Shown here one piece after another: positions 26,117-63,955 of a DNA stretch of 64,000 nucleotides. This stretch comes from a phage. The notes under the pieces are model-generated. The model had not been told where the DNA came from and made no database searches. It worked only from the letters and a program-made list of their open reading frames with translations. A program made the translations under genes and the position numbers. The stretch lies in assembly GCA_012813795.1 (NCBI GenBank), contig GCA_012813795.1_4087.1; one strand, given 5' to 3'. Positions within the stretch are counted from its first letter, which is position 1. Each line of letters opens with the position of its first letter.

Positions 26117-26316
26117 AATAACCTCTACTATAATTAATAAGGTAAACTACAATATAAGGAGCACGTTCGGCGGCGGGGTATTTTTTGTTTAAGGAAACAT
26201 GAACTGTACTCTGAAAAACACAATATAAAATTTTATATTAAACATATACCTTAACATGTTTTTCAGCGAAAATTTTTTTGACCCCCAAAAACAAGCCTAT
26301 ATTTATCATTTTAAAA

Positions 26317-27419: not shown

Positions 27420-27471
27420 CTAAATCACTCCCGTCTTTGTTGTATTGTGTGTTATTGCATGTTATTGCGTA

Positions 27472-28627: not shown

Positions 28628-29148
28628 ATGTTCTCCTTAAAAAAATCCAAATACTCTTCATTGAAAGCATAGGTATCATCTTTTTTGTTATGCACAATGT
28701 AATCATAAAGAGCAATGAATGCAGGGATTATGATCTTACATGATTTATTATTGTATTTGTGCTGCTCCAAATCAACGGTGTTCAATTTAGCAATAAGCAT
28801 AGCAGCAAAGATATCTTCATGGTGGTGTACTGTGCTGTACTGAAAATATTCATCCTCTCCAATATCGGGTTGATTTAATTGTATATCCAAATAATCATGC
28901 TCATTGGACCTTGTTATATTATATCTTTGTAATGCGACTGAATGCATGAACCACAATCTATCTTCTTTGAAATATGGAAAAATCGTTTGTTCTGTGCTAA
29001 CAAAAATTTCCTCATTTTTATCATATTTCACAAGAGGTGCATACATTTTATTTTTTGATGCACTAATAATTAAATTAAAAATATAATGAACCTTATACAC
29101 TGCACTTGATGCATCTTCGTATGTACTTGGGATCATGAAACTCGCCAT
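28624..29148 (-). CDS. FamA paralog
   Basis: 174 aa; motif EDEYFQYSTVHH. Confidence 0.65.
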   Translation of the reverse strand: MASFMIPSTYEDASSAVYKVHYIFNLIISASKNKMYAPLVKYDKNEEIFVSTEQTIFPYFKEDRLWFMHSVALQRYNITRSNEHDYLDIQLNQPDIGEDEYFQYSTVHHHEDIFAAMLIAKLNTVDLEQHKYNNKSCKIIIPAFIALYDYIVHNKKDDTYAFNEEYLDFFKENI

Positions 29149-29228
29149 AAATGTCTCCTTTAAAATGAATACACATGATAACAGCTTTGGTCTTCTATGT
29201 CAATACCAAAACAAAAAAAGCCCATATC

Positions 29229-29726
29229 TTACGATACAGGCTCGGTTGGGTAAAAGGACTCATATACATTTTTCATTTGCTGGAAATAAAAATATACATG
29301 ATTCTTAAGCACACCATTCTCATAAAGCATCTTATATATTGCGTAGAAAAAGATATCAATTTCTTCATACAATGTACTGTACTGGAACCACAATTCCGGT
29401 GTCAAGGGTTCTGTACTGTATTTGATTTCCAACAAAGCATCATCCATTGGTTTATCACGTCCTGGATACGTATACCAAAGGTCATCTCTTTCCAGACGAA
29501 GATCATTTTCATCAGGATATACATTGTCAGGAGCAAAATTTAAAAAACTAAAAAGCACTTTACCTGAATTTGATTCTTCTAACTGATTGTTGATGTAATC
29601 ATATTTGTGATTTATTGAAGCATATCCTTTTCCTTCATATGCTTTCATTATATTGTATACACCTTCAATGTACTTAACGTACTGTACAGCACTCTCTAAA
29701 CTAAATTCCACTTTACATTTTTGCAT
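29229..29726 (-). CDS. FamA paralog
   Basis: 165 aa; motif PELWFQYSTLYE. Confidence 0.65.
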   Translation of the reverse strand: MQKCKVEFSLESAVQYVKYIEGVYNIMKAYEGKGYASINHKYDYINNQLEESNSGKVLFSFLNFAPDNVYPDENDLRLERDDLWYTYPGRDKPMDDALLEIKYSTEPLTPELWFQYSTLYEEIDIFFYAIYKMLYENGVLKNHVYFYFQQMKNVYESFYPTEPVS

Positions 29727-30058
29727 AATAAAATAATCTCAACTAAAGCAAGAACTGTATTGAATTCAAAACACCCTGTGATTCCTTGAATGCTCATGTA
29801 CTTTGCTATTACATATTTCTGTACTAAATTATCATTCTTCTTGAATTCATCAAACGCATCATTACAACGTGTCATGTATTCTGTACTCAAAAATATCTTA
29901 TGCATCTCTAATGCACTCTGATAATATGCGTACAACTCACGAATATCTATACTACGCAAATCACTTTGTTCGTACTTATGATACGGAATAGCTTCAATTT
30001 CAATATTATAAAACCATTCTGTTAACTTATTAATATCAAATGTATTATTCAGCTTCAT
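29696..30058 (-). CDS. hypothetical protein
   Basis: 120-aa minus ORF; no FamA motif. Confidence 0.55.
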   Translation of the reverse strand: MKLNNTFDINKLTEWFYNIEIEAIPYHKYEQSDLRSIDIRELYAYYQSALEMHKIFLSTEYMTRCNDAFDEFKKNDNLVQKYVIAKYMSIQGITGCFEFNTVLALVEIILLCKNVKWNLV

Positions 30059-30623
30059 AACTCAATATCTCCATTAAGCACTCATAAACACCATCAATCG
30101 CATAAGCACAAAAATTGAAATTAATTTTGTGATTCTTGTGTAATGGACTATTGTGTACTGTACTCAACATAACACTATAAAACAAAGAACGTTCATGGGT
30201 AAATAATGATTCCTGAAAAAATGCTTCCTCTGATTTAATTTTATTATATTCAATCGGTTGATCATTAGAATAAAATGAATCTTGATTTGAATTGTACCAT
30301 GTGCAATCCAAATCATTCTTTGATATAACTGGTGTTGGATTAAACTGTAAAAGACTAATAACACTACGGGCATTCGGTGTATCAGGTGTATTGAATCGTT
30401 TGTCAAAATGACGTGTGCACGCAATATGTGAATCAAAATCAGATGGTTTAAACCCTATGCACGCGTTAATGATTCTTGTATATGGTTTTTTATTATGTGC
30501 TGCTTTCTGTACATTATATAAGGCTGCAACAATACAAGCTAACTTTTGTCCCATAAGGATTGCATTAGCATAGGTGTACTGAATATCCTTACTTTCATTA
30601 TACTCATTGTACTTCGAGGTCAT
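30045..30623 (-). CDS. FamA paralog
   Basis: 192 aa; motif EEAFFQESLFTH. Confidence 0.65.
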   Translation of the reverse strand: MTSKYNEYNESKDIQYTYANAILMGQKLACIVAALYNVQKAAHNKKPYTRIINACIGFKPSDFDSHIACTRHFDKRFNTPDTPNARSVISLLQFNPTPVISKNDLDCTWYNSNQDSFYSNDQPIEYNKIKSEEAFFQESLFTHERSLFYSVMLSTVHNSPLHKNHKINFNFCAYAIDGVYECLMEILSYEAE

Positions 30624-30912
30624 AATATTTCCTTTCCCATTCGGTTACATGTGCATTAAAATTCATAACAGCTTTCTGTATCTTTTTTAATAATAACACA
30701 TCATATCCACCTGTGTCAATCACTAATTGCTGTTGAAACAATTCTTCGTCGGATAATGTATTGAAATCTACAAAATAATCTGTGACTTCGTTATCATTTA
30801 AATGTGCCATGTACCAACCTGAACTACATGAATAAATCAAATTCCAACCGTCTTCATCGCCTTCTAATTCAACATAAATCATATCTTTGGTATAGAGCAT
30901 TCTATACTTCAT
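30604..30912 (-). CDS. FamA-like (short)
   Basis: 102 aa; motif DEELFQQQLVID. Confidence 0.6.
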   Translation of the reverse strand: MKYRMLYTKDMIYVELEGDEDGWNLIYSCSSGWYMAHLNDNEVTDYFVDFNTLSDEELFQQQLVIDTGGYDVLLLKKIQKAVMNFNAHVTEWERKYYDLEVQ

Positions 30913-31417
30913 AACTATATCCTTGCATCAAAATATCATAAACTGCTTGAATGTCAGGAACTTTTATATAAAATTTAAAACCCTTAATTAAAGGATTCGC
31001 GTACAATGAACTGAATAACTTTAGATAATGCATTTGACGAGGACTATATAATAACGATTTCTGAAATAATTCAGCACTACAATCTGTACTAATATCAATT
31101 AAATCAATTCGTTCTTCTACTTCATCATCTTGTTTCAAATCATAAAAGAAATAATCGTTTGTGTTTACCCACAAATACCCTTCTTTATTTTCGTATACAA
31201 CAGGAGATGTTTGTACTGGATTGGCTTGGGTAAATGCTGCAATACAAACGTTAACATTCCCTGCATTATTTGCATTGTGAAACATAAACGATAATTTACC
31301 ATGCCTATCTTCTATGCGTAATTCACGTATATCAATGTACTTATGTATAGGATGATTATTTTTGAGCATAAGCATTATTGTACTAATCTTGTGCGTTAAT
31401 AATTCAATTTCATTCAT
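30902..31417 (-). CDS. FamA paralog
   Basis: 171 aa; motif SAELFQKSLLYS. Confidence 0.65.
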   Translation of the reverse strand: MNEIELLTHKISTIMLMLKNNHPIHKYIDIRELRIEDRHGKLSFMFHNANNAGNVNVCIAAFTQANPVQTSPVVYENKEGYLWVNTNDYFFYDLKQDDEVEERIDLIDISTDCSAELFQKSLLYSPRQMHYLKLFSSLYANPLIKGFKFYIKVPDIQAVYDILMQGYSYEV

Positions 31418-31423
31418 ATATTA

Positions 31424-31789
31424 TTACCTATAGCATTTGAGCACTGTAACCAATCCCTCTGCATTCTTGAAATGCATTAAAGACAATGAACTATCAACGT
31501 ACTGCAATGATATAATTACATCCTGATTGGTGTGTTTGAATAAAAATTCCTGTACTGAATTCGTACCATAATACATGTACTTCGTTGCTTCAATCTGCAA
31601 ATAAGGTACTTCTGTATTGTGTAAAAAGATATTGATTATTTCATTATTCTGCAATCTGCAATCAAATTTGTATGTTTCATATAACGGTACATCCGATGAT
31701 GCCTGTGCTGTATGTGCGGTGTTTATAAATGATAAAAACACAAATGTTAAAATGAATATGATTTTATTGAACATGTTTTGTTTCCTCAA
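31424..31789 (-). CDS. secreted (signal-peptide) protein
   Basis: 121 aa; N-terminal hydrophobic stretch FILTFVFLSFINTAHTAQA|SS with AxA-type signal-peptidase site. Confidence 0.6.
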   Translation of the reverse strand: MRKQNMFNKIIFILTFVFLSFINTAHTAQASSDVPLYETYKFDCRLQNNEIINIFLHNTEVPYLQIEATKYMYYGTNSVQEFLFKHTNQDVIISLQYVDSSLSLMHFKNAEGLVTVLKCYR

Positions 31790-31983
31790 TAATGTTTGTA
31801 CTTGTGTAAAATTCTATCCTGTACTGAAAGATGCTCAAATACAATTAAACTCAAATAATAATTGTAATCATTGATACCACCCCTCAAATGCATATTGTAA
31901 TACAGCTTAATACTATCTAATAATGAATCCTGTAATGCATGTAATGCATTTAATGTCTTTGCATCTATCATCATCTTTCCCAT
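31786..31983 (-). CDS. hypothetical small protein
   Basis: 65-aa minus ORF. Confidence 0.5.
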   Translation of the reverse strand: MGKMMIDAKTLNALHALQDSLLDSIKLYYNMHLRGGINDYNYYLSLIVFEHLSVQDRILHKYKHY

Positions 31984-32372
31984 TTAATAGGGTATTCCGT
32001 TTCATTTACTACATACGACATAATCCATCCGTAATGGATAGGATGATATTTGTCTGAATCAGGAATAAAATATAAAGCTGTACTGGGATTATAACTGAAG
32101 AAATCCCTCTCGTCAAATGTTAATCTGGCTAACTTAATTTTCCTTGGAATTGCATGAGGACGAACTGTATTCTTTACACAGAATATACCATCCTTGTATT
32201 TTGGTACTATAACATCCAATGCACTCTGGATTAACTCCTGAAAGACTAAATTGATTTGTGCAAATGAATCCTTCTTGTTATGCATTTCGTGCCATAAATC
32301 TCGTCTTGCATTTAACATCATTATTACTGGTCTAAGATCCTGTACTACTGTTAGATTCTGCATTGTATTCAT
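31971..32372 (-). CDS. hypothetical protein
   Basis: 133-aa minus ORF. Confidence 0.55.
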   Translation of the reverse strand: MNTMQNLTVVQDLRPVIMMLNARRDLWHEMHNKKDSFAQINLVFQELIQSALDVIVPKYKDGIFCVKNTVRPHAIPRKIKLARLTFDERDFFSYNPSTALYFIPDSDKYHPIHYGWIMSYVVNETEYPIKWER

Positions 32373-32589
32373 TTATCTCATTCTGTAACTTAACAACCAA
32401 AATTTGCGTATGAATTTTTCGTTCAAGGTGCTTGATAAATTTCTGTACCATTTCTTCTTGTACTGATGTACCAAGATAAAATAACATATTAAATTCCGAT
32501 AATCGCAAAGCAAAATCTTCATCGCCCCCTTGTAAACAAAAATCCCTGTACTTTGATGCGTACAAATGATGGTTTACATTTTTGTACAT
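32332..32589 (-). CDS. FamB paralog
   Basis: 85 aa; motif MLFYLGTSVQEEMV. Confidence 0.6.
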   Translation of the reverse strand: MYKNVNHHLYASKYRDFCLQGGDEDFALRLSEFNMLFYLGTSVQEEMVQKFIKHLERKIHTQILVVKLQNEINEYNAESNSSTGS

Positions 32590-32792
32590 TTAGACTCCTT
32601 TGGTGTGCATACTATCTCTGTTCGTAAAGCCCTTATGTATGCATCAACAAATTGTGGCTGTGCTCTCGTTCCTAGATAAAATAATAAATCGAACTCTGCC
32701 ATTTTAACATTAAAAGGATCTGAATCTACATTTCGAATAAAATGTCTGTACTTCAATTCATATCCGTTAGGCATCTTCTTGTATACTATCAT
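32574..32792 (-). CDS. FamB paralog
   Basis: 72 aa; motif LLFYLGTRAQPQFV. Confidence 0.6.
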   Translation of the reverse strand: MIVYKKMPNGYELKYRHFIRNVDSDPFNVKMAEFDLLFYLGTRAQPQFVDAYIRALRTEIVCTPKESKCTKM

Positions 32793-33719: not shown

Positions 33720-33950
33720 CTACATTAGAGTACTGTCAACTGCTTTGTTCTCTATTATGCTCATTAAACCCCAAATTAGATAACGAACACTATCAGCTTG
33801 ATAGTTAGTACCTACTGTGCATTTTAAAATTAACTCATCTTTCAGTACTGCACGTTCTTCTTGGGGTATAGGAAGAGAATTTATTTGTTGTATTTGTGGT
33901 TGTAAAGTATTAATAAGCTTACAGTACTCTTCGAATGATAATCTTTTCAT
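33720..33950 (-). CDS. FamB paralog
   Basis: 76 aa; motif CTVGTNYQADSV. Confidence 0.6.
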   Translation of the reverse strand: MKRLSFEEYCKLINTLQPQIQQINSLPIPQEERAVLKDELILKCTVGTNYQADSVRYLIWGLMSIIENKAVDSTLM

Positions 33951-34306: not shown

Positions 34307-34528
34307 TTAAACACCTATTCCATTAGCAATAGCATCACGTAAAGCTGTCAAATACTTCTGTACTGCTTGCTCTTGATGATTTGTATCTAAAAGTATATAC
34401 ATCCATAATTCACTGTAATGTACATCTTGTGTATAAGGGTCATTGTAACTTTTTGATAATATAGCATCAAATTCAGATGCATGAACCCTTGTGAACTTAA
34501 GAATATCTTTTTGTGTTATGATTCTCAT
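34307..34528 (-). CDS. FamB paralog
   Basis: 73 aa; motif ILLDTNHQEQAV. Confidence 0.6.
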   Translation of the reverse strand: MRIITQKDILKFTRVHASEFDAILSKSYNDPYTQDVHYSELWMYILLDTNHQEQAVQKYLTALRDAIANGIGV

Positions 34529-34740
34529 ATCTTTTCCTGTACTATCTTTATAAGAATCTCAATATATGAATTAACAGTTATTTCTTGATGCTGTGTTCCT
34601 AAGAGTAGCAGTACTATCATCTCTGAACGCAAAAGATTTTTTTCAAGTTCCCCTATATCAGTTCTTGTATCAAGTACAATAAATTCTTTCTTATTTTTTC
34701 TGAATAGTGCCAAGTACTCTTGGTTTGATATTTCCTTCAT
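34525..34740 (-). CDS. FamB paralog
   Basis: 71 aa; motif LLLGTQHQEITV. Confidence 0.6.
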   Translation of the reverse strand: MKEISNQEYLALFRKNKKEFIVLDTRTDIGELEKNLLRSEMIVLLLLGTQHQEITVNSYIEILIKIVQEKI

Positions 34741-34967
34741 AGTTTATCCCTGATGCCATTTAAAAGTGCTCTAATATGCTCCTGTACGAATTGGTACTGA
34801 CTGTCTGTTCCTAGAGTGAGTAACAATCTTAAATCTGAACTTTTGATATGATATTCTAAATCATTATTTGATTCTTGCATCAGTTTCTTAAAGGATGAGA
34901 AGTTTGCTGCCATTAGTTCAATGTATTCTGCTGTTCCTAGGGGTTTGTGTATGTGCTGTCTGTGCAT
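34737..34967 (-). CDS. FamB paralog
   Basis: 76 aa; motif LTLGTDSQYQFV. Confidence 0.6.
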   Translation of the reverse strand: MHRQHIHKPLGTAEYIELMAANFSSFKKLMQESNNDLEYHIKSSDLRLLLTLGTDSQYQFVQEHIRALLNGIRDKL

Positions 34968-35179
34968 TTTAATTGTATTACCCTTTTGAGTGTATTAATG
35001 TAATTATAAACATTGGCTTCTTGATAGTTAGTTCCTAGAGTAGCTTGAACGTAGATTTCATTTAACTTAATAATTTTATCCGTATCTGGTAGTTTTGATG
35101 TGTTAATGGCAAATAACTTCAAAAACAGTCCATTTATGATTGTTCGGTATTCTTCTCCGGTAATGATTCGCATTTGCAT
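34937..35179 (-). CDS. FamB paralog
   Basis: 80 aa; motif ATLGTNYQEANV; start may be Met3. Confidence 0.6.
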   Translation of the reverse strand: MQMRIITGEEYRTIINGLFLKLFAINTSKLPDTDKIIKLNEIYVQATLGTNYQEANVYNYINTLKRVIQLKCTDSTYTNP

Positions 35180-35379
35180 TGGATAGACCTTTGGAGTGTA
35201 TTAAGATAATCCACGATGATGTGTTCTTGATAGTTAGTTCCTATAGTAGCTAGAACATAGATTTCACTTATTAGAATATTTTTTTCATCCTGTGATAATT
35301 CTTCTGACCAGCTACGATGCAACTTTGGAATTAAACTACTTAATAGTTGGTTGTATTCAGTAGGTGAAATGATTTTCAT
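35134..35379 (-). CDS. FamB paralog
   Basis: 81 aa; motif ATIGTNYQEHII. Confidence 0.6.
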   Translation of the reverse strand: MKIISPTEYNQLLSSLIPKLHRSWSEELSQDEKNILISEIYVLATIGTNYQEHIIVDYLNTLQRSIQCKCESLPEKNTEQS

Positions 35380-35591
35380 TTACATCTTCTCAGTACTGAT
35401 TCTTTAAGTTCATCGATGTAGTCCTCAACAAATTGTTCTTGTAGGTTTGTTCCGAGATGTAACAGTACTCTTAAATCTGCTCTCAGTACTTCTTTGTCAT
35501 CTTCATCTATATCAGACAGTGATATGTTTAAGAATTTACTTGAATTCTCTATAAGTAATATTACTTCATCACCTTCGCTTAAAATTTTCAT
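35376..35591 (-). CDS. FamB paralog
   Basis: 71 aa; motif LHLGTNLQEQFV. Confidence 0.6.
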   Translation of the reverse strand: MKILSEGDEVILLIENSSKFLNISLSDIDEDDKEVLRADLRVLLHLGTNLQEQFVEDYIDELKESVLRRCK

Positions 35592-35797
35592 AATCTTTGT
35601 GTTTTCCTCGACAGTAGATACAGGTAACGTTCAGTGCATTGTTCTTGATAGTTTGTTCCTAATAAATGAACTAATTGTTGTTCAGCTATAGAAAGCTGTT
35701 TATCTTCATAACAAGCGTATCGTTGTTTCCTATGGTATTCTTTATTGATAACATCAAGGATGATAACACCGTATTCGTCATCGGTCAAGTGTTTCAT
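35588..35797 (-). CDS. FamB paralog
   Basis: 69 aa; motif HLLGTNYQEQCT. Confidence 0.6.
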   Translation of the reverse strand: MKHLTDDEYGVIILDVINKEYHRKQRYACYEDKQLSIAEQQLVHLLGTNYQEQCTERYLYLLSRKTQRL

Positions 35798-36035
35798 GTG
35801 CTTTTCTTTTTCTTATATGTTTAGTTAAAAGGTATATTAGTTTTCTTACGTACTCGTCTTGATAGTTAGTCCCTAATAGTGCAAGAAGTTTTGCTTCAAC
35901 TAAAGCTAATTGTCGTTCTTCAAATGTGTGTTCCAGAATGTACTTGGGGTTTGATTTTTTAGAAATTGCACTATTAGTCTTCATTATAATCTTATGATAT
36001 TCATTGACCGTCAAGATTTTTATATTCTTGATCAT
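35778..36035 (-). CDS. FamB paralog
   Basis: Track ORF 35778..36146 trimmed to internal Met (MIKNIKILTVNEY) to remove overlap with the next paralog; motif ALLGTNYQDEYV. Confidence 0.5.
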   Translation of the reverse strand: MIKNIKILTVNEYHKIIMKTNSAISKKSNPKYILEHTFEERQLALVEAKLLALLGTNYQDEYVRKLIYLLTKHIRKRKAHETLDR

Positions 36036-36255
36036 ATATCTTTTCCTTAATAGTAATTTTAAGATATCTAAGAATCGATCGAACATAATAATCCTGTCTA
36101 TCGGTTCCAAGAAAGTACAGGAGTTGTTGATATAATACTTCTGCACTCCTTGCAGCAGGGGTTTGGTTTGGGTCTTTTGGAAGTTGATTTGTATGTTTTC
36201 TGGATTTAATTATTCTTTCTTTTATTTCATCGTCTGTTAAGTATATCATTTGCAT
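36001..36255 (-). CDS. FamB paralog
   Basis: Track ORF 36001..36291 trimmed to internal Met (MQMIYLTDDEI); motif YFLGTDRQDYYV. Confidence 0.5.
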   Translation of the reverse strand: MQMIYLTDDEIKERIIKSRKHTNQLPKDPNQTPAARSAEVLYQQLLYFLGTDRQDYYVRSILRYLKITIKEKIYDQEYKNLDGQ

Positions 36256-36482
36256 TTTATGTTCCTCACATGAATTGTTTGGATTAAACATTCAATCCAA
36301 GATGTAACATATCTTGTTTGATATTGTGTGCCTAAGAGACTCTGCATTTTAAACTCTGCTTCAAGTTCATATCTCTTTTCTATCGTAAAGCTTAAATGAC
36401 CATATTCTGCATCGTATCTTCTCAGTGATTCCCCAATTCTAGTAAATCTTTCTGCTAAGTTGATGTTATTCACAGTATTCAT
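36246..36482 (-). CDS. FamB paralog
   Basis: 78 aa; motif SLLGTQYQTRYV. Confidence 0.6.
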   Translation of the reverse strand: MNTVNNINLAERFTRIGESLRRYDAEYGHLSFTIEKRYELEAEFKMQSLLGTQYQTRYVTSWIECLIQTIHVRNIKCK

Positions 36483-36742
36483 CGATCAGTACACCTCAGT
36501 GGTTGGGTCATTTGATAAAAGTACAGCTTACCTCTGATTTCCATTAACAACTCGGCGATGACGCGATTTACTTCTGTCTCTTGATAGTTTGTTCCTAAGA
36601 AGACACCCATCTTTAACTCACGATGCATAATCATCTTCTTACTGTGTTGAATTTCTTGGCTGTAATAGATTGCATTACGTTTAGGTGAGATTTTTGCTAG
36701 TCGCTCGTTATATTCATCTTGACTTAAATTGATCATTTGCAT
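36479..36742 (-). CDS. FamB paralog
   Basis: 87 aa; motif VFLGTNYQETEV. Confidence 0.6.
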   Translation of the reverse strand: MQMINLSQDEYNERLAKISPKRNAIYYSQEIQHSKKMIMHRELKMGVFLGTNYQETEVNRVIAELLMEIRGKLYFYQMTQPLRCTDR

Positions 36743-36957
36743 TTACTTTGGACCTCATTTTGAAGTGCATTAATGACCTTCAGTACAGCACTCGCTTGAT
36801 AGTTTGTTCCTAAGACTGAAAGCATCTTGATCTCATTTACTACAATCCACTTATTTGATTGTTCAATAATGTAACTTTCATAAATGGCCTTGCGTAATGA
36901 ATAAGTTTTTGCAAGACGTACATAATATTCATCTTTACTTAAATTAATCATTTGCAT
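36733..36957 (-). CDS. FamB paralog
   Basis: 74 aa; motif SVLGTNYQASAV. Confidence 0.6.
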   Translation of the reverse strand: MQMINLSKDEYYVRLAKTYSLRKAIYESYIIEQSNKWIVVNEIKMLSVLGTNYQASAVLKVINALQNEVQSKCK

Positions 36958-37166
36958 TTACTTTTAACCTCTTTCTGGAGTGCATCAATCCATAGGTCTA
37001 TATACGTTTGTTGATAGTTTGTGCCTAAGAGTGCCTCTACATAGAGTTCAGCTACCTTTGCGTGCTTTAGGTCAACAGGGATGCTCTTATCGCTTGATAA
37101 CATTCTCCTTCTGCTGGTGCATGTTTTCAGAAGCCTGATGTATTCAACACCTTGTAATTTTCTCAT
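36948..37166 (-). CDS. FamB paralog
   Basis: 72 aa; motif ALLGTNYQQTYI. Confidence 0.6.
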   Translation of the reverse strand: MRKLQGVEYIRLLKTCTSRRRMLSSDKSIPVDLKHAKVAELYVEALLGTNYQQTYIDLWIDALQKEVKSKCK

Positions 37167-37378
37167 TCTCTGGATATCACCTTGTTACGTAGACTTGCTA
37201 ACCATGCGTCAGTATAGATGTTTTGATAGTTTGTCCCAATGAAGATAGATAGCTTCATTTCAGTTATTATAACACATTTGTCCACTTGTGCAATAGATTT
37301 GTTTAAAGAAATACTAGAAACTTTTGCTTGTATAGTTCGCAACAGCCTGTAATATTCATACCCACTAAGGATTTTCAT
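37163..37378 (-). CDS. FamB paralog
   Basis: 71 aa; motif IFIGTNYQNIYT. Confidence 0.6.
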   Translation of the reverse strand: MKILSGYEYYRLLRTIQAKVSSISLNKSIAQVDKCVIITEMKLSIFIGTNYQNIYTDAWLASLRNKVISRE

Positions 37379-37625
37379 TCTCTCGTCTCCAGACTTCCGT
37401 TCTTATATGTTGTTGATATGCTTCCAGATAGTTCTCTATTGCCTTAGCGATTGTTTGTGTATCGTCTCCCGTCATCAGTACAAGCATCTCTGCTTCACAG
37501 TGAATAAGTCTGCTGATATCATTAGTGAGTTTATCAGATACTGTATCATAGTGTTTGTGGATTAGTTTCTGAAATAGTTTAACGTACATGATGTGATTTA
37601 TTCTGGATCGCATTGTCTTTTCCAT
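37365..37625 (-). CDS. FamB-like (divergent)
   Basis: 86 aa; degenerate motif LVLMTGDDTQTIA. Confidence 0.5.
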   Translation of the reverse strand: MEKTMRSRINHIMYVKLFQKLIHKHYDTVSDKLTNDISRLIHCEAEMLVLMTGDDTQTIAKAIENYLEAYQQHIRTEVWRRENENP

Positions 37626-37849
37626 TCTCTTTTGGTCTGGCGGGTTTTATATGCTACAAGGTTTCTTAGTGCATTGATATAACGATCAGTGAAGATATCT
37701 TGTTTATTAGTTCCAACGAATTTAAGAAGAAACACGTCACCATTAACTACATCATTCTCAGGGGAAGGATAAAGTTCATTGTTCTTGCGAAGGGTGTTTA
37801 GTAAAGAGAATAGGGCAGATTGATACTCAGTGCTTGATAATACTTTCAT
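37598..37849 (-). CDS. FamB paralog
   Basis: 83 aa; motif KFVGTNKQDIFT. Confidence 0.6.
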   Translation of the reverse strand: MKVLSSTEYQSALFSLLNTLRKNNELYPSPENDVVNGDVFLLKFVGTNKQDIFTDRYINALRNLVAYKTRQTKREWKRQCDPE

Positions 37850-38073
37850 TAGTTCATTCCCTTTCTTTCTATATGTTTCATAAGAACATTAAGATACTCA
37901 CCCACAAACCTATTCTGATACTGCGTCCCCATGAATTCAAACAGCCATACTTCAGCAACCATTTCTTCAATTTCATTCCAAGATAAGTACATCATAGTGA
38001 AGTAAATGTGGTTCTCTTTTTGAGATGCACACCTTGAGCGAGCCTCGTATTCAAAGTTATTAATGCAGTTCAT
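37849..38073 (-). CDS. FamB paralog
   Basis: 74 aa; motif EFMGTQYQNRFV. Confidence 0.6.
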   Translation of the reverse strand: MNCINNFEYEARSRCASQKENHIYFTMMYLSWNEIEEMVAEVWLFEFMGTQYQNRFVGEYLNVLMKHIERKGMN

Positions 38074-38282
38074 AGTTTACTCCTGATGTATTTCTCAAGA
38101 GCTATTAGATACTCTTGGACATAAGATTTCTGGTGGTCAGTTCCTAAGAAGACACCCATAAGTAATTCTTTTTCCATAACTTTTGATAAGTGTACATCAT
38201 CACGGTCTGCATATATCAGCAAGATTTCAATCTGCTTAGAATTGTAACGTTTCCTATATTGCTCTGGTGTTAATATAATCAT
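38070..38282 (-). CDS. FamB paralog
   Basis: 70 aa; motif VFLGTDHQKSYV. Confidence 0.6.
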   Translation of the reverse strand: MIILTPEQYRKRYNSKQIEILLIYADRDDVHLSKVMEKELLMGVFLGTDHQKSYVQEYLIALEKYIRSKL

Positions 38283-38497
38283 AGTTTACTCTTTATATCT
38301 TCAATTAAAAATCCAATCCAATCATTGACATACTCTTCCTGAAAGTTTGTGTCCAGTACAGCCATCATGCGATATTCTGCTCTTTTGGCGTCGATTACAG
38401 TTTTAGGGAGGTCACCATGTATATCTATCATGTCATCAAGGTATTTCAATATACGACCAAATGCTTGTGTCTGTGTTATGATTTTCAATGTTTGCAC
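38279..38497 (-). CDS. FamB paralog
   Basis: 72 aa; motif AVLDTNFQEEYV. Confidence 0.6.
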   Translation of the reverse strand: MQTLKIITQTQAFGRILKYLDDMIDIHGDLPKTVIDAKRAEYRMMAVLDTNFQEEYVNDWIGFLIEDIKSKL

Positions 38498-38685
38498 CTC
38501 GCTCGTATGTCAGCTTTCAAAGATTCCAAATAGTGAGTTATCCACACTTCCTGATAGTTGGTTCCCATCGCAATCAACAGGTACAACTCAACTCTTTCTA
38601 AGTGCACATTGCTTTGGTAAATCCTTGCCGTGTTTTTACGTAGTATATGATGATATTCATCTTGGGTTAATGTACGCATTTTCAT
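38485..38685 (-). CDS. FamB paralog
   Basis: 66 aa; motif IAMGTNYQEVWI. Confidence 0.6.
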   Translation of the reverse strand: MKMRTLTQDEYHHILRKNTARIYQSNVHLERVELYLLIAMGTNYQEVWITHYLESLKADIRARCKH

Positions 38686-38879
38686 AGTTTACCATTTATC
38701 TCTAAACATAACTCTTTTACATATAGTTTAACATATTCATTTTGTAAGTTAGTTCCTAAGAATAGTTCCATAACTAATTCACGTTTATAGGCATTACCAC
38801 GTTTATGAGACTTATACATTATCATAGCCATGTTATTGATAAGTCTTTCGTGATGCTCTTCTTGGGTTAAAATACGCAT
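38682..38879 (-). CDS. FamB paralog (first of array)
   Basis: 65 aa; motif LFLGTNLQNEYV. Confidence 0.6.
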   Translation of the reverse strand: MRILTQEEHHERLINNMAMIMYKSHKRGNAYKRELVMELFLGTNLQNEYVKLYVKELCLEINGKL

Positions 38880-39372: not shown

Positions 39373-39482
39373 TGGTTTCTCCTTATGTTATTTGTTATGA
39401 TTATAGCATACGAAACATTTTTGTCCCACCCATGAACCCCTTCACACGAGCTAAGCAATTACCCGCCCCTAGTTGCCCTAAG

Positions 39483-58245: not shown

Positions 58246-58564
58246 CGTTTTAATTCCTATTAAAGTGAGTTAGGAGCGTTTCCCCCGTCTCGATGTAAAA
58301 CATTATACGCCGTTAAACATAGTATGCAAATACTTTCTGCAAATACTTTTAAAATAGTTTTCTTTCTATATAGGAGTACTATCATTCAGTACTGAATCAA
58401 TCCAGGGAGTACAATTATTCAGTACTATACCCTCAAAACGTCCTCAGTCGCTTTCTAACGCATTAATACACCTAAGCTATACATTTGCACCACTCCCAAC
58501 AATCCAGGGCTTTACGGGCCGTTTAAACGCGTTAAATTATTTTCAATTATTTTGTTTTTAGCTA

Positions 58565-58592
58565 TTGACTCAGTACAGAAAAAGCGTATAAT
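58565..58592 (+). promoter_or_regulatory. plus-strand sigma70-like promoter in the non-coding hub
   Basis: TTGACT-N16-TATAAT; downstream non-coding sequence carries the conserved CCCCAGGGGGTGC box. Confidence 0.45.
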
Positions 58593-58779
58593 TACTACAT
58601 AGACGCGAGAAAGCGGATACCCCAGGGGGTGCGGAACTACGCCCAAAATTCAGTAAATTTAAAAAGGATACACTCCCGCACCCTAGCAGGTCAAAGCACT
58701 TTCTCAGTACTGAATCATAGTACCATAGTACGCCCCATGATAGCAAGCAAATTAATTAAAACTTTTTGCATCCAGGGTA

Positions 58780-58807
58780 TTGCTTTATTTTTCCAGTACT
58801 GTATAAT
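58780..58807 (+). promoter_or_regulatory. plus-strand sigma70-like promoter in the non-coding hub
   Basis: TTGCTT-N16-TATAAT; downstream non-coding sequence carries the CCCAACGGGTGC box. Confidence 0.4.
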
Positions 58808-58904
58808 AGTTCCATCAAGTCGAGAAAGACTCAAGCCCAACGGGTGCATAGTTACGCCCAAAATTCAGTACTAGATTATTTTTTAAAAATATTCATCCAG
58901 GCGG

Positions 58905-58933
58905 TTGACATTGCCCCCAGTTTATTAGATAAT
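58905..58933 (+). promoter_or_regulatory. plus-strand sigma70-like promoter in the non-coding hub
   Basis: TTGACA-N17-GATAAT, followed by GGGGAAACCATCCCC hairpin. Confidence 0.45.
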
Positions 58934-59030
58934 GATTCCAGATTCAGAAAAATCTAACTCCAGATACTGCGGGGAAACCATCCCCACGCGGTAGGGGAAC
59001 TAATGGAAAAAACAGTATAAAATTTTGATT

Positions 59031-59170
59031 TAGCCGTCTATACATCCAGACGTTTAGCCGTCCAAACGTCTAGCGGTACAGCCATCTAGCAGTACAGCCA
59101 TCTAGCCACCTAGAGGGATAGCCATCTTTACTTCCAGACTTCTGGAGGGCTAGACATCTCTACGTCCAAA
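59031..59170. repeat. iteron-like cluster (candidate origin, packaging or partition site)
   Basis: Reiterated ~11-bp units TAGCCGTCTA / TAGCCGTCCA / CAGCCATCTAGC x2 / TAGCCACCTAG / TAGCCATCTT / GGCTAGACATCTC plus palindrome CCAGACTTCTGG. Confidence 0.55.
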
Positions 59171-60000
59171 ATCCACACAGGGTTACTACGCCCAAAATCC
59201 GTCAGTACTATACCATAGATCTATCTTTGAGAAGGGAGTATTCAGTACTGCCATCATAGTCCTCACTATGTTACCCTAGGAGGATGAAGACTATCATGTA
59301 GTACTGAATACTTTTAAGGGGAATATCATCACATTGCGTGATGCATTATATATTAGATTAATATCAGTACTGCTACCATTCTGTTAATAACAGTACTGTT
59401 TATATTACGAAAAAAAGAGGTTGTCAAAGATGAACCACTACATAGGAGGATTCAATCTCTTCTGTACTGTCTCACGACAGGGGGAATAAGGCTCTGAATT
59501 GTTTGCGGCAATCCATCACTCTATGTAGAACATTATACAGTACTGAATCATAATGTCAATAACTTTCTTACATTTGCAGTACTAAAATCGTATCTTCTGT
59601 ATCTCTTCAAAACTCATTATATCCCAATAATCCTATATGTCCCAACGTGAATTCCAACTTTCGAAGATCCAACTTTTATTTCATAGGTACTCCAAAATTT
59701 TTACGATCCAGATTTACGATGGAGTACTAACCAACTTTTTGCTGGAGCCTCAAGGGGTATTCGGAATTTTCCCCAATGGGTAATCGGGATTTTTGACGAA
59801 GGGTAAATTGAACTTTTTTGAATAGGTGATTGGGAGTTTTCAGTACTGGTCATTCCGTGATTACTTTTGATTACATTTGACATGTTATGCAAAGTTGCAG
59901 TACGGTAAAAATATGTAAATTTTGGGCGACTTCATTTGCCTACTTAGTGGGATATCAGTACTGAATCATATAGGGGTAATCCTTCAGTACTGAATACTTT

Positions 60001-60120
60001 CCTGTACTCTAGTACACTCTATTACACTCTAGTACTCAATACTAATCACTACTAACCACTACAATGATTATAAATGATTACTTAAATGTTTATATATGAT
60101 TACTTATGACTACCTATGAT
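60001..60120. repeat. short direct-repeat cluster
   Basis: TACACTCT x2, TAATCACTAC/TAACCACTAC, ATGATTAC x4. Confidence 0.5.
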
Positions 60121-60163
60121 TACGGGGTTTAGCCTGGGGAGAATCCTAGTGATCGCATTTGTC

Positions 60164-60228
60164 CAGGCTGAATTTTAACAATTCAGACGTCGAGCAGGCT
60201 GAATTTTAACATATGCAACATATGTTAA
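60164..60228. repeat. 17-bp direct repeat plus 10-bp inverted repeat
   Basis: CAGGCTGAATTTTAACA x2 (60164-60180, 60194-60210) and TTAACATATG-caa-CATATGTTAA (60206-60228). Confidence 0.6.
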
Positions 60229-60270
60229 AGCCTGTATAATGCTTACACTACGGAGCTTCCCCTAGCTATA

Positions 60271-60513
60271 TTACTTCCTATATATAAGCATTAAGATATA
60301 GTAGTACTGATTGTACTGATTGTACTGATTGTACTGATTGTACTGATTGTACTGATTGTACTGTACATTCTCTTTAACAGGACAAGGGTCTATTGCTATA
60401 TTAGTACATCTATACAATTCATATCTATTAAAGGGTAGTTCTATGAGAGATTTAATCCATACTTGTTCATTCTCTTTGAGTTTACTTATATAGAAGTCTT
60501 TATGATTATCCAT
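60271..60513 (-). CDS. FamC paralog with internal (YNQ)n repeat
   Basis: 80 aa; MDNHKDFYISKL...; C-terminal YNQYNQYNQYNQYNQYNQYYYILMLIYRK encoded by the 9-bp tandem repeat. Confidence 0.6.
   Translation of the reverse strand: MDNHKDFYISKLKENEQVWIKSLIELPFNRYELYRCTNIAIDPCPVKENVQYNQYNQYNQYNQYNQYNQYYYILMLIYRK
60301..60363. repeat. 9-bp tandem repeat (x7) inside a coding region
   Basis: TGTACTGAT x7 on the plus strand, i.e. (CAG TAC AAT)n = (QYN)n on the coding strand. Confidence 0.8.
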
Positions 60514-60706
60514 AGATATATATTAACAACATTAGGTTAGAGTATAGTGCTTTAGTGTCATCTTGTTCTAGAGCTTCAATTGAGTTCGTTGTAGCTTTCC
60601 TAAAGCACATTTTTGCGTATGCACTTTTTGGATTAACGGGGGCGGTGGCTTCGCACCAGATTCTTTCGGTGGTTGATAGTTTACTCATATAGTATTCTTT
60701 ATACAT
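60506..60706 (-). CDS. FamC paralog
   Basis: 66 aa; MYKEYYMSKL...LMLLIYIYG. Confidence 0.6.
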   Translation of the reverse strand: MYKEYYMSKLSTTERIWCEATAPVNPKSAYAKMCFRKATTNSIEALEQDDTKALYSNLMLLIYIYG

Positions 60707-60707
60707 A

Positions 60708-60896
60708 TTAGTACCTGAATATAAGTAGTATAATGTTATAGTACTGATTAGTACTGCTAAGATTCTCTATAGAGCGAATAACAGTTAGGGAGTAGTTATA
60801 CTTGGAGTATGCATTATCCAGTGGGACTTTATATTGAGCACTAAGTGATAGTTCTGTAGGGAGAGTACTTAAGTAGAATTCTTTATGGTTTTGCAT
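60708..60896 (-). CDS. FamC paralog
   Basis: 62 aa; MQNHKEFYLSTL...ILLIFRY. Confidence 0.6.
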   Translation of the reverse strand: MQNHKEFYLSTLPTELSLSAQYKVPLDNAYSKYNYSLTVIRSIENLSSTNQYYNIILLIFRY

Positions 60897-60897
60897 A

Positions 60898-61086
60898 TTA
60901 GTACCTGAATGTTAGCATTGTTATGTAGTACAGCATATATGGATTGTCATCGTATATTAGGGTGTACTTAGTACATTGTTGGAACATTATTTTTGCATGA
61001 TCTTTTATGCCAATAGGTTTTGTTGGCACATGGTGTTGGAGATGCATTGGGAGATGATCTTTATAAAATTCTTTATAGTTGTTCAT
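60898..61086 (-). CDS. FamC paralog
   Basis: 62 aa; MNNYKEFYKDHL...ITMLTFRY. Confidence 0.6.
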   Translation of the reverse strand: MNNYKEFYKDHLPMHLQHHVPTKPIGIKDHAKIMFQQCTKYTLIYDDNPYMLYYITMLTFRY

Positions 61087-61087
61087 A

Positions 61088-61273
61088 TTAGTACTTATAT
61101 ATTAGTAAAAGGATGTGATACAGTACTCGATTATAGTCGTCAATATCTATCGAGGATTTAGTGCACTTAACGAAGTAGTCTTTTTCGTAGTCTTTTTCTA
61201 TACCCAATGGTTCTGTTGGTACAAGGTATTGTAGATGCATTGGGAGTTTATCTATGTAGTATTCTTTATACAT
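61088..61273 (-). CDS. FamC paralog
   Basis: 61 aa; MYKEYYIDKL...LLLIYKY. Confidence 0.6.
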   Translation of the reverse strand: MYKEYYIDKLPMHLQYLVPTEPLGIEKDYEKDYFVKCTKSSIDIDDYNRVLYHILLLIYKY

Positions 61274-61288
61274 ATTAGTCCTTAGTCC

Positions 61289-61489
61289 TTAGTACTGGAA
61301 CGCGAGATACAGGGTGTGGTACAGTTGTACTTGAGAATTGTTTTCATTAACTTCTTCATTAAGTACTTGTTCAGTACAATTGCGGAAGTAATCAGCTTCA
61401 TATATACAGTTAATGTCGCGAGGTTCATCATCTAATAGATTGCCTTGTAGAAACTTTGGTAGTTCTTTAATATAGAATTCTTTATACAT
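61289..61489 (-). CDS. FamC paralog
   Basis: 66 aa; MYKEFYIKEL...LYLAFQY. Confidence 0.6.
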   Translation of the reverse strand: MYKEFYIKELPKFLQGNLLDDEPRDINCIYEADYFRNCTEQVLNEEVNENNSQVQLYHTLYLAFQY

Positions 61490-61497
61490 ATTAGTCC

Positions 61498-61692
61498 TTA
61501 GTACACGAACGTGAGGTACAGGGTGTGGTATAGTGCTCGATGATAGCTATCATAATCTTGTATACATGCTTTAGTGCACATAATGAATCTTGCTTTATTA
61601 ATCTCTGTGTTTAAGTTTCTAGGATGTTCTAGGTGATCGATTATGTACTGTGGGAAAAATTTTAGGTATAGTTCTTTGTGTTCATTTTTCAT
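61498..61692 (-). CDS. FamC paralog
   Basis: 64 aa; MKNEHKELYLKF...LYLTFVY. Confidence 0.6.
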   Translation of the reverse strand: MKNEHKELYLKFFPQYIIDHLEHPRNLNTEINKARFIMCTKACIQDYDSYHRALYHTLYLTFVY

Positions 61693-61693
61693 A

Positions 61694-61876
61694 TTAGTAC
61701 CTGTATATAAGTGTTAGTACATTGTACAGGTTATAGATATCATCTTCATTTATTGCAGATTCTGTTTGATATCGGTAGAATATAGTTTGGCTCTTATCTT
61801 TGAAATCTACAGGTTCGCGGGGAATAAGCTTTTGTAGATCAATACTAAGAAAACTTATGTAGTATTCTTTATACAT
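61694..61876 (-). CDS. FamC paralog
   Basis: Track ORF 61694..61939 trimmed to MYKEYYISFL...; ends ...LTLIYRY. Confidence 0.55.
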   Translation of the reverse strand: MYKEYYISFLSIDLQKLIPREPVDFKDKSQTIFYRYQTESAINEDDIYNLYNVLTLIYRY

Positions 61877-62540
61877 AGTTTGTAATATACGTAATGAGGT
61901 GATGAATTTTCTTATTAGTACTGATAAGTTCATGTACATGTTTTGTTAGATTGTACGCGTTTTTGTACAGTACAGGGTTATCGATTACAGTACTGTACAT
62001 GAATAGTTCTTCTTCTGATAATTCTTTGCCTTGTAGTTCTTTGAGGAATTCTACAATTGATTTAGTTTCTTCTGTACGTTGTGCTTGCCAGAAGTGCATA
62101 TTCTCGTGTATTTCTTCTGCACCCATACTGTATATGCCACCCATTTGGAATTGTGCTGTATTGACATCGTGGGAGGTGTTACAATTCCCGAAGAAGTATG
62201 TATTCCCGAAGTATAGCATTAAAGTGCACGGGGTATTATCCAACTGCATATGGATGATGAAGGATGCGTTCTTTAGTACCTTCATGCTCGTATTAGTACT
62301 CAATACTTTTAAATCAGTATTATAGATATTCATATAATGAACAGCTATATTATTTTTCTTCATGTACAATTCAAGGTTCTTTGATACGTTAACTCCATTT
62401 GTACTGGTTTTTTTACTTTTCTTTAGGTTCTTTAGTACATTAGGATGATAAGTATATGCATTAGTGGTAGATTCAGCCTGGATTGATTGCAGGTACTTAA
62501 AGTGCTGTAGGTATCGTTTGCTTTGTGGATTAAGTTTCAT
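61869..62540 (-). CDS. FamA-like protein embedded in the FamC array
   Basis: 223 aa; variant motif EEELFMYSTVID. Confidence 0.6.
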   Translation of the reverse strand: MKLNPQSKRYLQHFKYLQSIQAESTTNAYTYHPNVLKNLKKSKKTSTNGVNVSKNLELYMKKNNIAVHYMNIYNTDLKVLSTNTSMKVLKNASFIIHMQLDNTPCTLMLYFGNTYFFGNCNTSHDVNTAQFQMGGIYSMGAEEIHENMHFWQAQRTEETKSIVEFLKELQGKELSEEELFMYSTVIDNPVLYKNAYNLTKHVHELISTNKKIHHLITYITNYV

Positions 62541-62551
62541 TTGGTTTCCTT

Positions 62552-62590
62552 AAATTGCTTATACTGCTTATACTGTTTATACTGTTACAA
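62552..62590. repeat. 9-bp tandem repeat (x3-4), intergenic
   Basis: TGCTTATAC TGCTTATAC TGTTTATAC TGTT just upstream of the 61869..62540 start. Confidence 0.6.
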
Positions 62591-62756
62591 GCGAGATTAT
62601 TTCTCTGTATGGGTTATTTTTTGTCAGGACGTGATGAATGCAGCTATTGAGATTAATAGTTTTAGTACTTTTTGTTCCCAGGTTGTAGTACTTCACGAAG
62701 GTGTCGTACATGAAACGATCCTTAGTACTGAGATTATCGGTGTAGTACTCTAGCAT
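62577..62756 (-). CDS. small Tyr-rich protein (59 aa), not in ORF track
   Basis: Hand-translated codon by codon: MLEYYTDNLSTKDRFMYDTFVKYYNLGTKSTKTINLNSCIHHVLTKNNPYREIISLVTV; AAGGAAT SD. Confidence 0.5.
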   Translation of the reverse strand: MLEYYTDNLSTKDRFMYDTFVKYYNLGTKSTKTINLNSCIHHVLTKNNPYREIISLVTV

Positions 62757-62766
62757 AGTTTATTCC

Positions 62767-62946
62767 TTATATAGAGATAAGTTTCAGTACTTCATTATAT
62801 GTGAACATTTCGTCCTGTGCCAATTTAGTACAATTCAGGAGTAATTTTCTTTGTTTTCTTTGCGAACTACAATGATAGCTCATTGAGAAGTAATTGAAGC
62901 CGTATCTATCTTCTGGGTAAATTACGCTTAGGTAGTATTCTAGCAT
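62767..62946 (-). CDS. small Tyr-rich protein (59 aa), not in ORF track; paralog of 62577..62756
   Basis: Hand-translated MLEYYLSVIYPEDRYGFNYFSMSYHC...; same MLEYY N-terminus; frame checked only at start and stop. Confidence 0.4.
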   Translation of the reverse strand: MLEYYLSVIYPEDRYGFNYFSMSYHCSSQRKQRKLLLNCTKLAQDEMFTYNEVLKLISI

Positions 62947-62954
62947 TGTATTCT

Positions 62955-63140
62955 CTACATTTCAATAAGTTTAAGTACTGCTCTGTACGTGTACTTAGTT
63001 GTTAGTGTTTCTTTTATAGCAGTACAGAAGTAATGTTGTTTGTCTCTAATACTGCCGCGTTTGTAGTACCATACATGGGAGTTGTGGCTGTACTTGTCTC
63101 TGTCGGATAGTTTTTGGTAATAGTAGCTTTTATGATTCAT
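62955..63140 (-). CDS. FamC paralog
   Basis: 61 aa; MNHKSYYYQKL...AVLKLIEM. Confidence 0.6.
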   Translation of the reverse strand: MNHKSYYYQKLSDRDKYSHNSHVWYYKRGSIRDKQHYFCTAIKETLTTKYTYRAVLKLIEM

Positions 63141-63349
63141 TGTAATGTAATTAGCCTTACTATATTAAAGTACTCGGTCCCTGTTGCACCTTGTAGAATA
63201 TTACGCACGACATGTTTGTGGTGCTGGATGATTGCTGAAGGTGCGGTTCTTTTAAGTTTTTTAAAAGTACTGAATTCTTGTTTAAGGATGAACTGTATAT
63301 CTTTAGGGAGAATATCTATGTAGTACTGATGAATGTTCATAGTTTTCAT
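63137..63349 (-). CDS. FamC paralog
   Basis: 70 aa; MKTMNIHQYYIDIL...IVRLITLQ. Confidence 0.6.
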   Translation of the reverse strand: MKTMNIHQYYIDILPKDIQFILKQEFSTFKKLKRTAPSAIIQHHKHVVRNILQGATGTEYFNIVRLITLQ

Positions 63350-63359
63350 ATAGCACCTT

Positions 63360-63551
63360 TTAGAACTTAAAGATGAGGTACATGATAGATAGGTACTTAG
63401 TTTCAGTAAACTGTTGTTCTATTGCATAACGTGTCTCCAACCTGAAATCGTAATTATAAAAGGGACTATTCTTTCTCATAGGTTCTTGAGGGAATGAGTC
63501 CCTGTATTGTTCGTGTAGTTTACTACAGTAGAAATCTTTATGATTATTCAT
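63360..63551 (-). CDS. FamC paralog
   Basis: 63 aa; MNNHKDFYCSKL...IMYLIFKF. Confidence 0.6.
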   Translation of the reverse strand: MNNHKDFYCSKLHEQYRDSFPQEPMRKNSPFYNYDFRLETRYAIEQQFTETKYLSIMYLIFKF

Positions 63552-63753
63552 AGAAGTATATTAGTCCGATTAAACTTGAGTACTGCATATTTTTGTTATT
63601 GCATTCAATAGCTTCTAGAGTACTACGTATACAATTATTAAAGCAATTCCTGGTGTTGGGTGTGTCTATACTTACAGGTGGTACACTCCTTAGAAACATT
63701 TGTTCTTCGTTGCTGAGGTATTTGGTGTAGAATTCTTTATGTTCAGTTTTCAT
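63544..63753 (-). CDS. FamC paralog
   Basis: 69 aa; MKTEHKEFYTKYL...LIGLIYFYE. Confidence 0.6.
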   Translation of the reverse strand: MKTEHKEFYTKYLSNEEQMFLRSVPPVSIDTPNTRNCFNNCIRSTLEAIECNNKNMQYSSLIGLIYFYE

Positions 63754-63754
63754 A

Positions 63755-63955
63755 TTAGTACTCCAATAGTAGTGTTAAGATGAAATAGTACTGCATACTT
63801 TCGTTACCTTCTATTGCATTCCAGATGAGGTTATTCCTGTTTGAGTTCAGGAGTCCTGGTATGCGTTTAGCATTTTTCAGTACTGTTTTTTGGTTCTTCA
63901 TTGCATCTTGTAGGCCAGGGTGCAATGCATTGATGTAGTACGGGTTAATGTTCAT
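63755..63955 (-). CDS. FamC paralog
   Basis: 66 aa; MNINPYYINAL...FILTLLLEY. Confidence 0.6.
   Translation of the reverse strand: MNINPYYINALHPGLQDAMKNQKTVLKNAKRIPGLLNSNRNNLIWNAIEGNESMQYYFILTLLLEY

Follow-up and report, generated by a model that had tools for sequence, protein, structure and literature searches.

The stretch of DNA analysed here (the window) comprises 64,000 nucleotides of the phage contig GCA_012813795.1_4087.1 and carries near its end, at 60271-63955 on the minus strand, a tandem array of small tyrosine-rich genes that we refer to as FamC. In Megablast and tblastn searches, the nearest relatives of the window belong to the genus Asteriusvirus, ~350-kb jumbo phages of E. 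coli and Salmonella such as 121Q, PBECO4, G17 and phAPEC6; the closest records are A4 (94% at the nucleotide level) and Turkey3 (98% at the amino acid level for the gene C12). A preliminary description of the locus had placed and counted the genes correctly: 16 consecutive open reading frames (ORFs) follow each other at spacings of -8 to +36 nt, 15 of them small (59-80 amino acids, aa) and one encoding a protein of 223 aa. Numbering follows the order of transcription, from C01 (63755-63955) to C16 (60271-60513). Ten of the small genes (C02, C03 and C09-C16) constitute the core of the family, C05-C07 form subgroup S1, and C01 and C04 form subgroup S2. The tyrosine richness noted for these genes is real, at 11.3% compared to 4.6-6.5% in the window's other gene sets.

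C01 (66 aa, MNINPYY...LLLEY) is the first array gene within the window; the array continues beyond the window end with one further gene and a promoter, both of which can be read in the relatives. The first core gene, C02 (63544-63753; 69 aa, MKTEHKEFY...LIYFYE), overlaps C03 (63360-63551; 63 aa) by 8 nt. These are followed by C04 (63137-63349; 70 aa), a basic protein with an isoelectric point (pI) of 10.0, and by the three S1 genes: C05 (62955-63140; 61 aa), likewise basic with a net charge of +6.8, and C06 (62767-62946) and C07 (62577-62756), each encoding 59 aa and beginning with MLEYY. The 223-aa gene C08 (61869-62540), which matches phrog_29152 (E 5e-139), lies outside the family and splits the array. 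C09 (61694-61876) shares 8 nt with the end of C08; its family-consistent start at 61876, as annotated in the G17 orthologue, gives a 60-aa protein beginning with MYKEYY, and reading from the first ATG (61939) gives an ORF of 81 aa. In the record of phage A4, the C09 orthologue (L002 6487-6669) is unannotated. The remaining core genes are C10 (61498-61692; 64 aa), the acidic C11 (61289-61489; 66 aa, pI 4.3), the reference member C12 (61088-61273; 61 aa), C13 (60898-61086; 62 aa), C14 (60708-60896; 62 aa), C15 (60506-60706; 66 aa) and the last gene of the operon, C16 (80 aa). A search for tRNAs and non-coding RNAs in and beside the array found none.

All 15 small genes are members of one homologous family that consists of the ten core members and the two divergent subgroups. 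In an all-versus-all BLASTP comparison, core members match each other down to E 1e-20 (C13 to C12), C04 matches C01 at E 9e-9, and C06 matches C05 and C07 at E 1e-5 to 1e-6. For iterative searches, we compiled a target set of 568 ORFs from the window and eight related loci, together with 568 reversed decoys. A jackhmmer search seeded with C12 recruited all 15 small genes within five rounds (C01 in round 2, C07 in round 4, C04 and C06 in round 5) and neither a decoy nor any other ORF of the window. A hidden Markov model (HMM) built from the ten core genes placed all array genes ahead of the first unrelated ORF among the same 568. The subgroups align with the core over the full length of 58 columns in profile-profile comparisons (hhalign), with 92.6% probability for S1 (E 4.5e-7) and 90.3% for S2 (E 1.5e-6), a family signal far above chance. 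All six core genes submitted to a PHROG profile search matched phrog_11711 over their full length (E 2e-12 to 3.9e-27; among them C02 at 1.2e-13, C10 at 1.9e-15, C12 at 3.9e-27, C14 at 6.3e-15 and C16 at 2e-12), and the remaining core genes are covered by the core HMM at E<=1e-18 (C03 at 2e-26, C15 at 1.3e-25). The same profile search gave no PHROG match for C01, C04, C05, C06 and C07. Thus, phrog_11711 is the core family under another name, carries no function, and misses the five divergent genes, which are joined to it by iterative and profile-profile searches only. The preliminary description had defined the family by a shared N-terminal M(N/K)xHKEFY and a C-terminal L(I/T)(Y/F)(R/K/Q)(Y/F) motif with two divergent variants; the tandem family itself stands, but the strict motif pair occurs in ten genes only and the divergent members number five. 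Beyond the window end, the first gene of the operon reaches 29.8% probability against S2 (E 5.6e-4, 61 columns) and less than 1% against the core, and would be a very distant family member at best. Two further kinships were considered and discarded: neither the C-terminal module of the FQxS family nor the LGTNYQE family, the other two groups of tandem genes in the window, reaches a profile-profile probability of 5% with FamC, and a BLAST match between C07 and the C-terminus of C08 found no support in profile-profile comparison.

The proteins of the family are predicted to be soluble and to share one compact four-helix scaffold. AlphaFold modelled C12 as a compact fold of four helices (residues 3-7, 12-15, 28-43 and 47-60) with a predicted local distance difference test (pLDDT) score of 92.1 and a predicted template modelling score of 0.77, and the divergent C05 likewise as four helices (pLDDT 86.5). 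No informative structural relative was found for the predicted four-helix fold. Conserved alignment columns are nearly all aromatic or hydrophobic (the invariant Y6, L10, F34, C37, I/L42, Y/L51, I54, L55, L57, I58 and Y/F59) and show helical periodicity in helices 3 and 4. Column entropies identify the loop at residues 16-27 and the other helix faces as hypervariable. The last 10-12 residues of the chain are hydrophobic and aromatic, a feature that had suggested membrane or protein-protein anchoring and that counts in favour of small membrane- or tail-anchored proteins. The hydrophobic stretch, however, measures only ~11 residues, and the best 19-residue Kyte-Doolittle window reaches at most 0.76 in any member where ~1.6 is needed, which excludes a membrane span; the N-terminus in addition has no signal peptide-like features. 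In the models of both C12 and C05 the segment is a packed helix of the globular domain, so that the hydrophobic C-terminus is best described, at the level of prediction, as the core helix (helix 4) of the fold. We therefore regard a membrane-anchoring role as scarcely credible. The other half of the original suggestion, a putative role in protein-protein binding, is plausible.

Comparison with the relatives places the family under protein-level purifying selection, with a repertoire that turns over between phages. The ratio of nonsynonymous to synonymous substitution rates (dN/dS) lies at 0.1-0.5 in most orthologue pairs, which together with the confident AlphaFold models indicates real coding genes. 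Each phage carries 14-16 copies, many of which are without a close orthologue elsewhere or only 30-60% identical to it. While hydrophobic and aromatic core positions are conserved, surface, net charge and gene content vary strongly, and pI values across the family span 4.3 to 10.0. Repeats are visible in the downstream genes: C12-C15 repeat at a period of ~190 bp, and C16 contains an in-frame tandem repeat at 60304-60363 on the minus strand (9 nt x 6.7, encoding (NQY)6; Tandem Repeats Finder score 120, 100% matches), the unit of which is single-copy in the orthologues of the relatives. A family member in TH47 carries an N-terminal (KEY)3 expansion.

FamC is restricted to a single lineage. Full HMM scanning of 1.84 billion representative proteins returned 30 family proteins of 41-69 aa, all single-domain, which correspond to ~30 types at 50% identity. 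In 5.8 billion proteins, word-indexed searches found 40 relatives, and the two sets combined consist entirely of single-domain proteins with lengths of 41-84 aa. All named sources are Asteriusviruses, as are all 36 records found by tblastn, and the HMM scan and tblastn together rule out a wider family beyond the genus. In SP27, PBECO4, Sharanji and others, the tblastn matches lie under the annotation 'none'. The array occupies the same position in every relative examined, flanked on one side by a divergently oriented cluster of RCC1-like 'DNA condensation' genes and on the other by a stretch of ~2 kb without ORFs; a 169-kb metagenomic contig preserves this synteny. In a Yersinia Eneladusvirus, homologous RCC1-like genes are present and the small-gene array is absent. 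A literature search found no paper on the family.

The spacing of -8 to +36 nt and the recurrent GTACTAAT-ATG junction mark the array as one tightly packed, translationally coupled operon. Seven gene junctions read (A/G)G-TAC-TAA-T-ATG and two read GTACTAAGGACTAAT-ATG, with an overall consensus of GTACTAATATG across the array genes, and a Shine-Dalgarno-like element (AGG/AAGGA) and the stop codon stand directly before the next start codon. As AGG/AAG-TAC-TAA-T-ATG thereby forms both the junction and the ribosome-binding region of the next cistron, the characteristic (R/K/Q)(Y/F)-stop ending of the proteins is in part a nucleotide-level signal. Upstream of the operon, seven relatives carry AAAACCC-TTGACA-17 nt-TAC(T/A)AT (TAGAAT in Turkey5), followed by AAGGAG and ATG. 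This is a sigma-70 promoter close to the consensus, with an A-rich element upstream, and it is kept in all relatives examined; a late-type TATAAATA is found at none of these operon promoters.

The position of the operon also appears to be close to the genome terminus. The deposited ends of the G17 genome form an exact direct repeat of 20,668 bp, the inner boundary of which (GCCTACT|TAGTGG) aligns to positions 59944|59945 of the window, 327 bp beyond the C16 stop codon, and the opposite boundary falls near 39454. From this alignment we infer that ~39454-59944 of the window represents a ~20.5-kb direct terminal repeat in a single collapsed copy. Terminal repeats of ~20-21 kb have been confirmed experimentally in the genus (PMC13070987), with reports of 20-21 kb for Sharanji (by PhageTerm only) and fEgEco12 (by PhageTerm and restriction digests). 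The region 39454-59944 contains nine perfect and ~35 strong sigma-70 sites, nearly all on the minus strand (112 sites found compared to 66+/-9 in shuffled sequences). With a terminal repeat this rich in sigma-70 promoters, the array is the first transcription unit outside an early region of classic appearance. The same region has a higher GC content (0.38-0.41), dozens of small genes that each stand behind a repeated promoter unit, and 26 terminator-like hairpins, again almost exclusively on the minus strand. A non-coding spacer (59945-60270) with four runs of 10-nt-period repeats at 60006-60123 separates the last family gene from the repeat boundary. This spacer ends a stretch of ~2 kb (58300-60270) without ORFs, tRNA or Rfam matches, which contains a perfect TTGACA-16-TATAAT promoter on the minus strand (59559-59532) and paired repeats of ~70 nt (58586-58655 and 58801-58870) and is a candidate terminus or packaging region, origin, or small-RNA region.

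A proximity of this kind raises the question of whether the main significance of the array lies in its DNA or RNA, as a block dense in GTAC and AGTACT beside the terminus with a role in packaging, replication or the binding of regulators; the Tyr-rich reading frames would then largely be a consequence of the motif. Array genes contain 56 GTAC sites (19 per kb), where 22.3+/-3.7 are expected for the same amino acids with the codon usage of the window (z 9.0) and 28.8+/-3.3 after shuffling of the genes' own synonymous codons (z 8.2). TAC accounts for 68% of the Tyr codons in the array compared to 35-44% elsewhere and is preceded by G in 46% of cases. Along with the junction consensus and the repeat boundary 327 bp away, this synonymous excess speaks for a DNA-level role. 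However, FQxS genes far from the terminus show a ~2-fold synonymous excess of GTAC as well (z 12), and the same holds genome-wide, which makes the excess a trait of the genome as a whole rather than of the array. The dN/dS values below 1 and the confidently modelled, conserved fold furthermore indicate constraint on the proteins. We consequently judge a primarily nucleic acid-level function improbable. A mixed explanation, which we regard as equally doubtful, is that the family is doubly coded: genus-wide selection for GTAC, AGTACT and CAGTACTG near the terminus might have shaped both the Tyr (TAC) signature and the Tyr-stop junctions or, alternatively, the T4-like N-terminus might mark injected cargo. 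If double coding were true, protein sequence and DNA-level signal would be entangled in one array.

Taken at the protein level, the array is an uncharacterised jumbo phage family of small, presumably early ORFans arranged in tandem, a type of family that is already known. We tentatively favour the reading, which we hold to be possible but short of probable, that its members are early cytoplasmic binders expressed from a host-type promoter that target host proteins for takeover or anti-defence. Host RNA polymerase would transcribe the operon immediately after infection, and the proteins would work as small cytoplasmic binding modules in which a common scaffold displays a different surface in each paralogue. 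Bound host proteins might then be inhibited or redirected, and the repertoire would be renewed through tandem duplication, divergence and replacement. In favour of this reading, besides the homology, selection, operon structure, promoter, neighbouring terminal repeat and repertoire turnover described above, some orthologue pairs have dN/dS values of 1.1-1.5, and no family member was detected among 62 virion proteins of phAPEC6. A comparable proposal exists for the related phage CBB, in which a region of short genes with RpoD-like promoters was suggested to be the early host-takeover region (PMC5259590). Several points weigh against this interpretation. The promoter and the first gene lie outside the window and are known from relatives; no Asteriusvirus transcriptome was found in the literature, and early timing is deduced from the promoter sequence only; the dN/dS values of 1.05-1.5 in some C12 and C03 pairs rest on very few substitutions; and a role in the phage's own programme would leave identical sequence signatures.

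Such an internal role is the main competing explanation. The small proteins might serve as adaptors, chaperones or regulators for C08, for the ~50 FQxS paralogues or for the RCC1-like virion proteins. In its favour, C08 is embedded at the same array position in all relatives examined (as a protein of ~220 aa, or 137 aa in Salmonella phage SD-2_S15), the array is always back-to-back with the RCC1-like cluster, and the several large paralogue families of the genome might need matching partners. C08 itself had been described as a FamA-like gene within the array. The gene is there, and it contains an 'EEELFMYST' motif like that of the large FQxS family at 1-34000, with M in place of Q, but its resemblance to that family is weak: residues 168-210 match an HMM of the FQxS C-module built without C08 at E 0.003, where the best decoy scores 0.28, and its orthologues range from E 0.002 to 0.49, with five of seven ranked above that decoy. 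Against an internal role stand the Yersinia Eneladusvirus, which has the RCC1-like array without the small-gene family, the mismatch in copy number (15 genes here compared to ~50 FQxS genes), and the host-type promoter, as for the early genes of the terminal repeat. On balance, we consider service to the phage's own programme unlikely, though worth keeping in view.

A further alternative is that the proteins are packaged and injected, like the internal proteins (IPs) of T4, in which case M..(Y/H)(K/Q)(E/D)F(Y/I) would act as a capsid targeting sequence and the variable bodies as anti-restriction factors. The N-termini are suggestive: T4-type IPII and IPIII begin with MKTYQEFIAE, and FamC members with, for example, MNNYKEFYKD (C13) or MKTEHKEFY (C02). 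In T4, the targeting function resides in residues 4 and 7, and a diverse set of defence proteins shares only that sequence (PMC9026906, PMC3012670). With Y4 and F7, C13 agrees with MKTYQEFIAE at both positions; in the majority of members, H4/F7 or a register shift is seen. Asteriusviruses also possess a T4-like prohead core protease, and heads of 121Q show internal protein in bubblegram imaging. The T-even IP loci moreover resemble the array as clusters of small, fast-diverging proteins with a shared Tyr/Glu/Phe-rich N-terminal motif and a supposed arms race with the host. In contrast to IPI, IPII and IPIII, however, FamC proteins are homologous over their whole length and not in a leader alone, the N-terminus is modelled inside the fold (pLDDT ~90), and a conserved (L/I)xE cleavage site at residues 8-10 is lacking, with only C11 (IKE) fitting. 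As indirect evidence from a relative, the list of 62 virion proteins of phAPEC6 includes gp549 and gp551, which adjoin the array, and no array gene, in a data set in which a 4.7-kDa protein was detected (PMC7247149). The sigma-70 promoter without late-type TATAAATA is likewise of the early type. We thus deem injected cargo very unlikely.

The favoured reading of early host-directed binders finds partial parallels in other viruses. Terminal redundancy genes of SPO1 and pre-early genes of T5 are host-takeover modules located in or next to long terminal repeats. Like these and the CBB region, the array lies at a genome terminus among strong sigma-70 promoters and consists of many very small genes without assigned function; unlike them, where mostly unrelated genes have their own promoters, FamC is a single operon of 15 paralogues. 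The multigene families of African swine fever virus and the terminal host-range families of poxviruses are tandem paralogues beside terminal repeats whose copy number and content turn over between close strains. FamC adjoins the left repeat and the FQxS and LGTNYQE families the right one in a similar manner, an analogy of genome architecture only, with no sequence or structural relation. Small phage anti-defence proteins such as anti-CRISPRs (50-90 aa) are lineage-restricted, hypervariable and without detectable homologues. FamC shares their size, lineage restriction, hypervariability and scarcity of homologues, and differs in having neither an associated regulator gene nor homology to them. 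Most jumbo phage genes have no known function, and small proteins of this type have proved fruitful in other phages as sources of new inhibitors; the family provides a defined set of ~15 proteins (about 30 world-wide) for screening against host targets and defence systems. The finding overturns nothing and is of specialist interest.

Taken together, the three tandem families account for more than 40 kb of the 64 kb analysed and lie to both sides of the inferred terminal repeat. The FQxS family (FamA; 55-34304, minus strand) comprises ~47 tandem paralogues of 100-280 aa with the motif EE.(F/Y)FQ.S(T/L) ~45-60 residues before the C-terminus, which resembles the cleavage site of tobacco etch virus (TEV) or 3C proteases. 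Its PHROG matches (9317, 12674, 13866 and 28549) are all of unknown function, and no Pfam match was found. The LGTNYQE family (FamB) consists of ~25 tandem genes of 65-87 aa that match phrog_4148, also of unknown function; they lie at 34307-38879, with further members at 21346-21990, 32332-32792 and 33720-33950, and do not share the GTAC enrichment of their neighbours. Across the window, GTAC is 3-fold over-represented, through synonymous codons in FamA and FamC and not in FamB.

Other short sequences are also unevenly distributed. The 8-nt palindrome CAGTACTG occurs in 66 copies compared to ~0.6 expected (~1 per kb) and is densest at 58387-59985; ~32% of the copies lie in the 13% of non-coding DNA, ten of them in the 2-kb ORF-free stretch. 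Within sigma-70-like promoters, the palindrome lies in the spacer; an Eneladusvirus is enriched in it as well, and a T4-type control has none. A literature search for the sequence returned primer sequences only. AGTACT is absent from 26000-32000 and 36000-38000 and reaches 5-17 copies per 2 kb in most other parts of the window, while GTAC stays frequent at 26-32 kb and drops to near expectation at 36-38 kb; the AGTACT-free stretches may be segments of different history. GCGC does not occur in the 64 kb (~59 expected), in ~190 kb of related Asteriusvirus loci or in the Yersinia Eneladusvirus locus, whereas CGCG is found at the expected rate and the T4-type control locus has 12 GCGC sites, which suggests strong avoidance of the site of a restriction enzyme or phage nuclease. 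Among the FQxS paralogues, an ORF of 470 aa (11942-13354, minus strand), judged by eye only, has several predicted membrane helices and a C-terminal region that resembles a methyl-accepting chemotaxis signalling domain.

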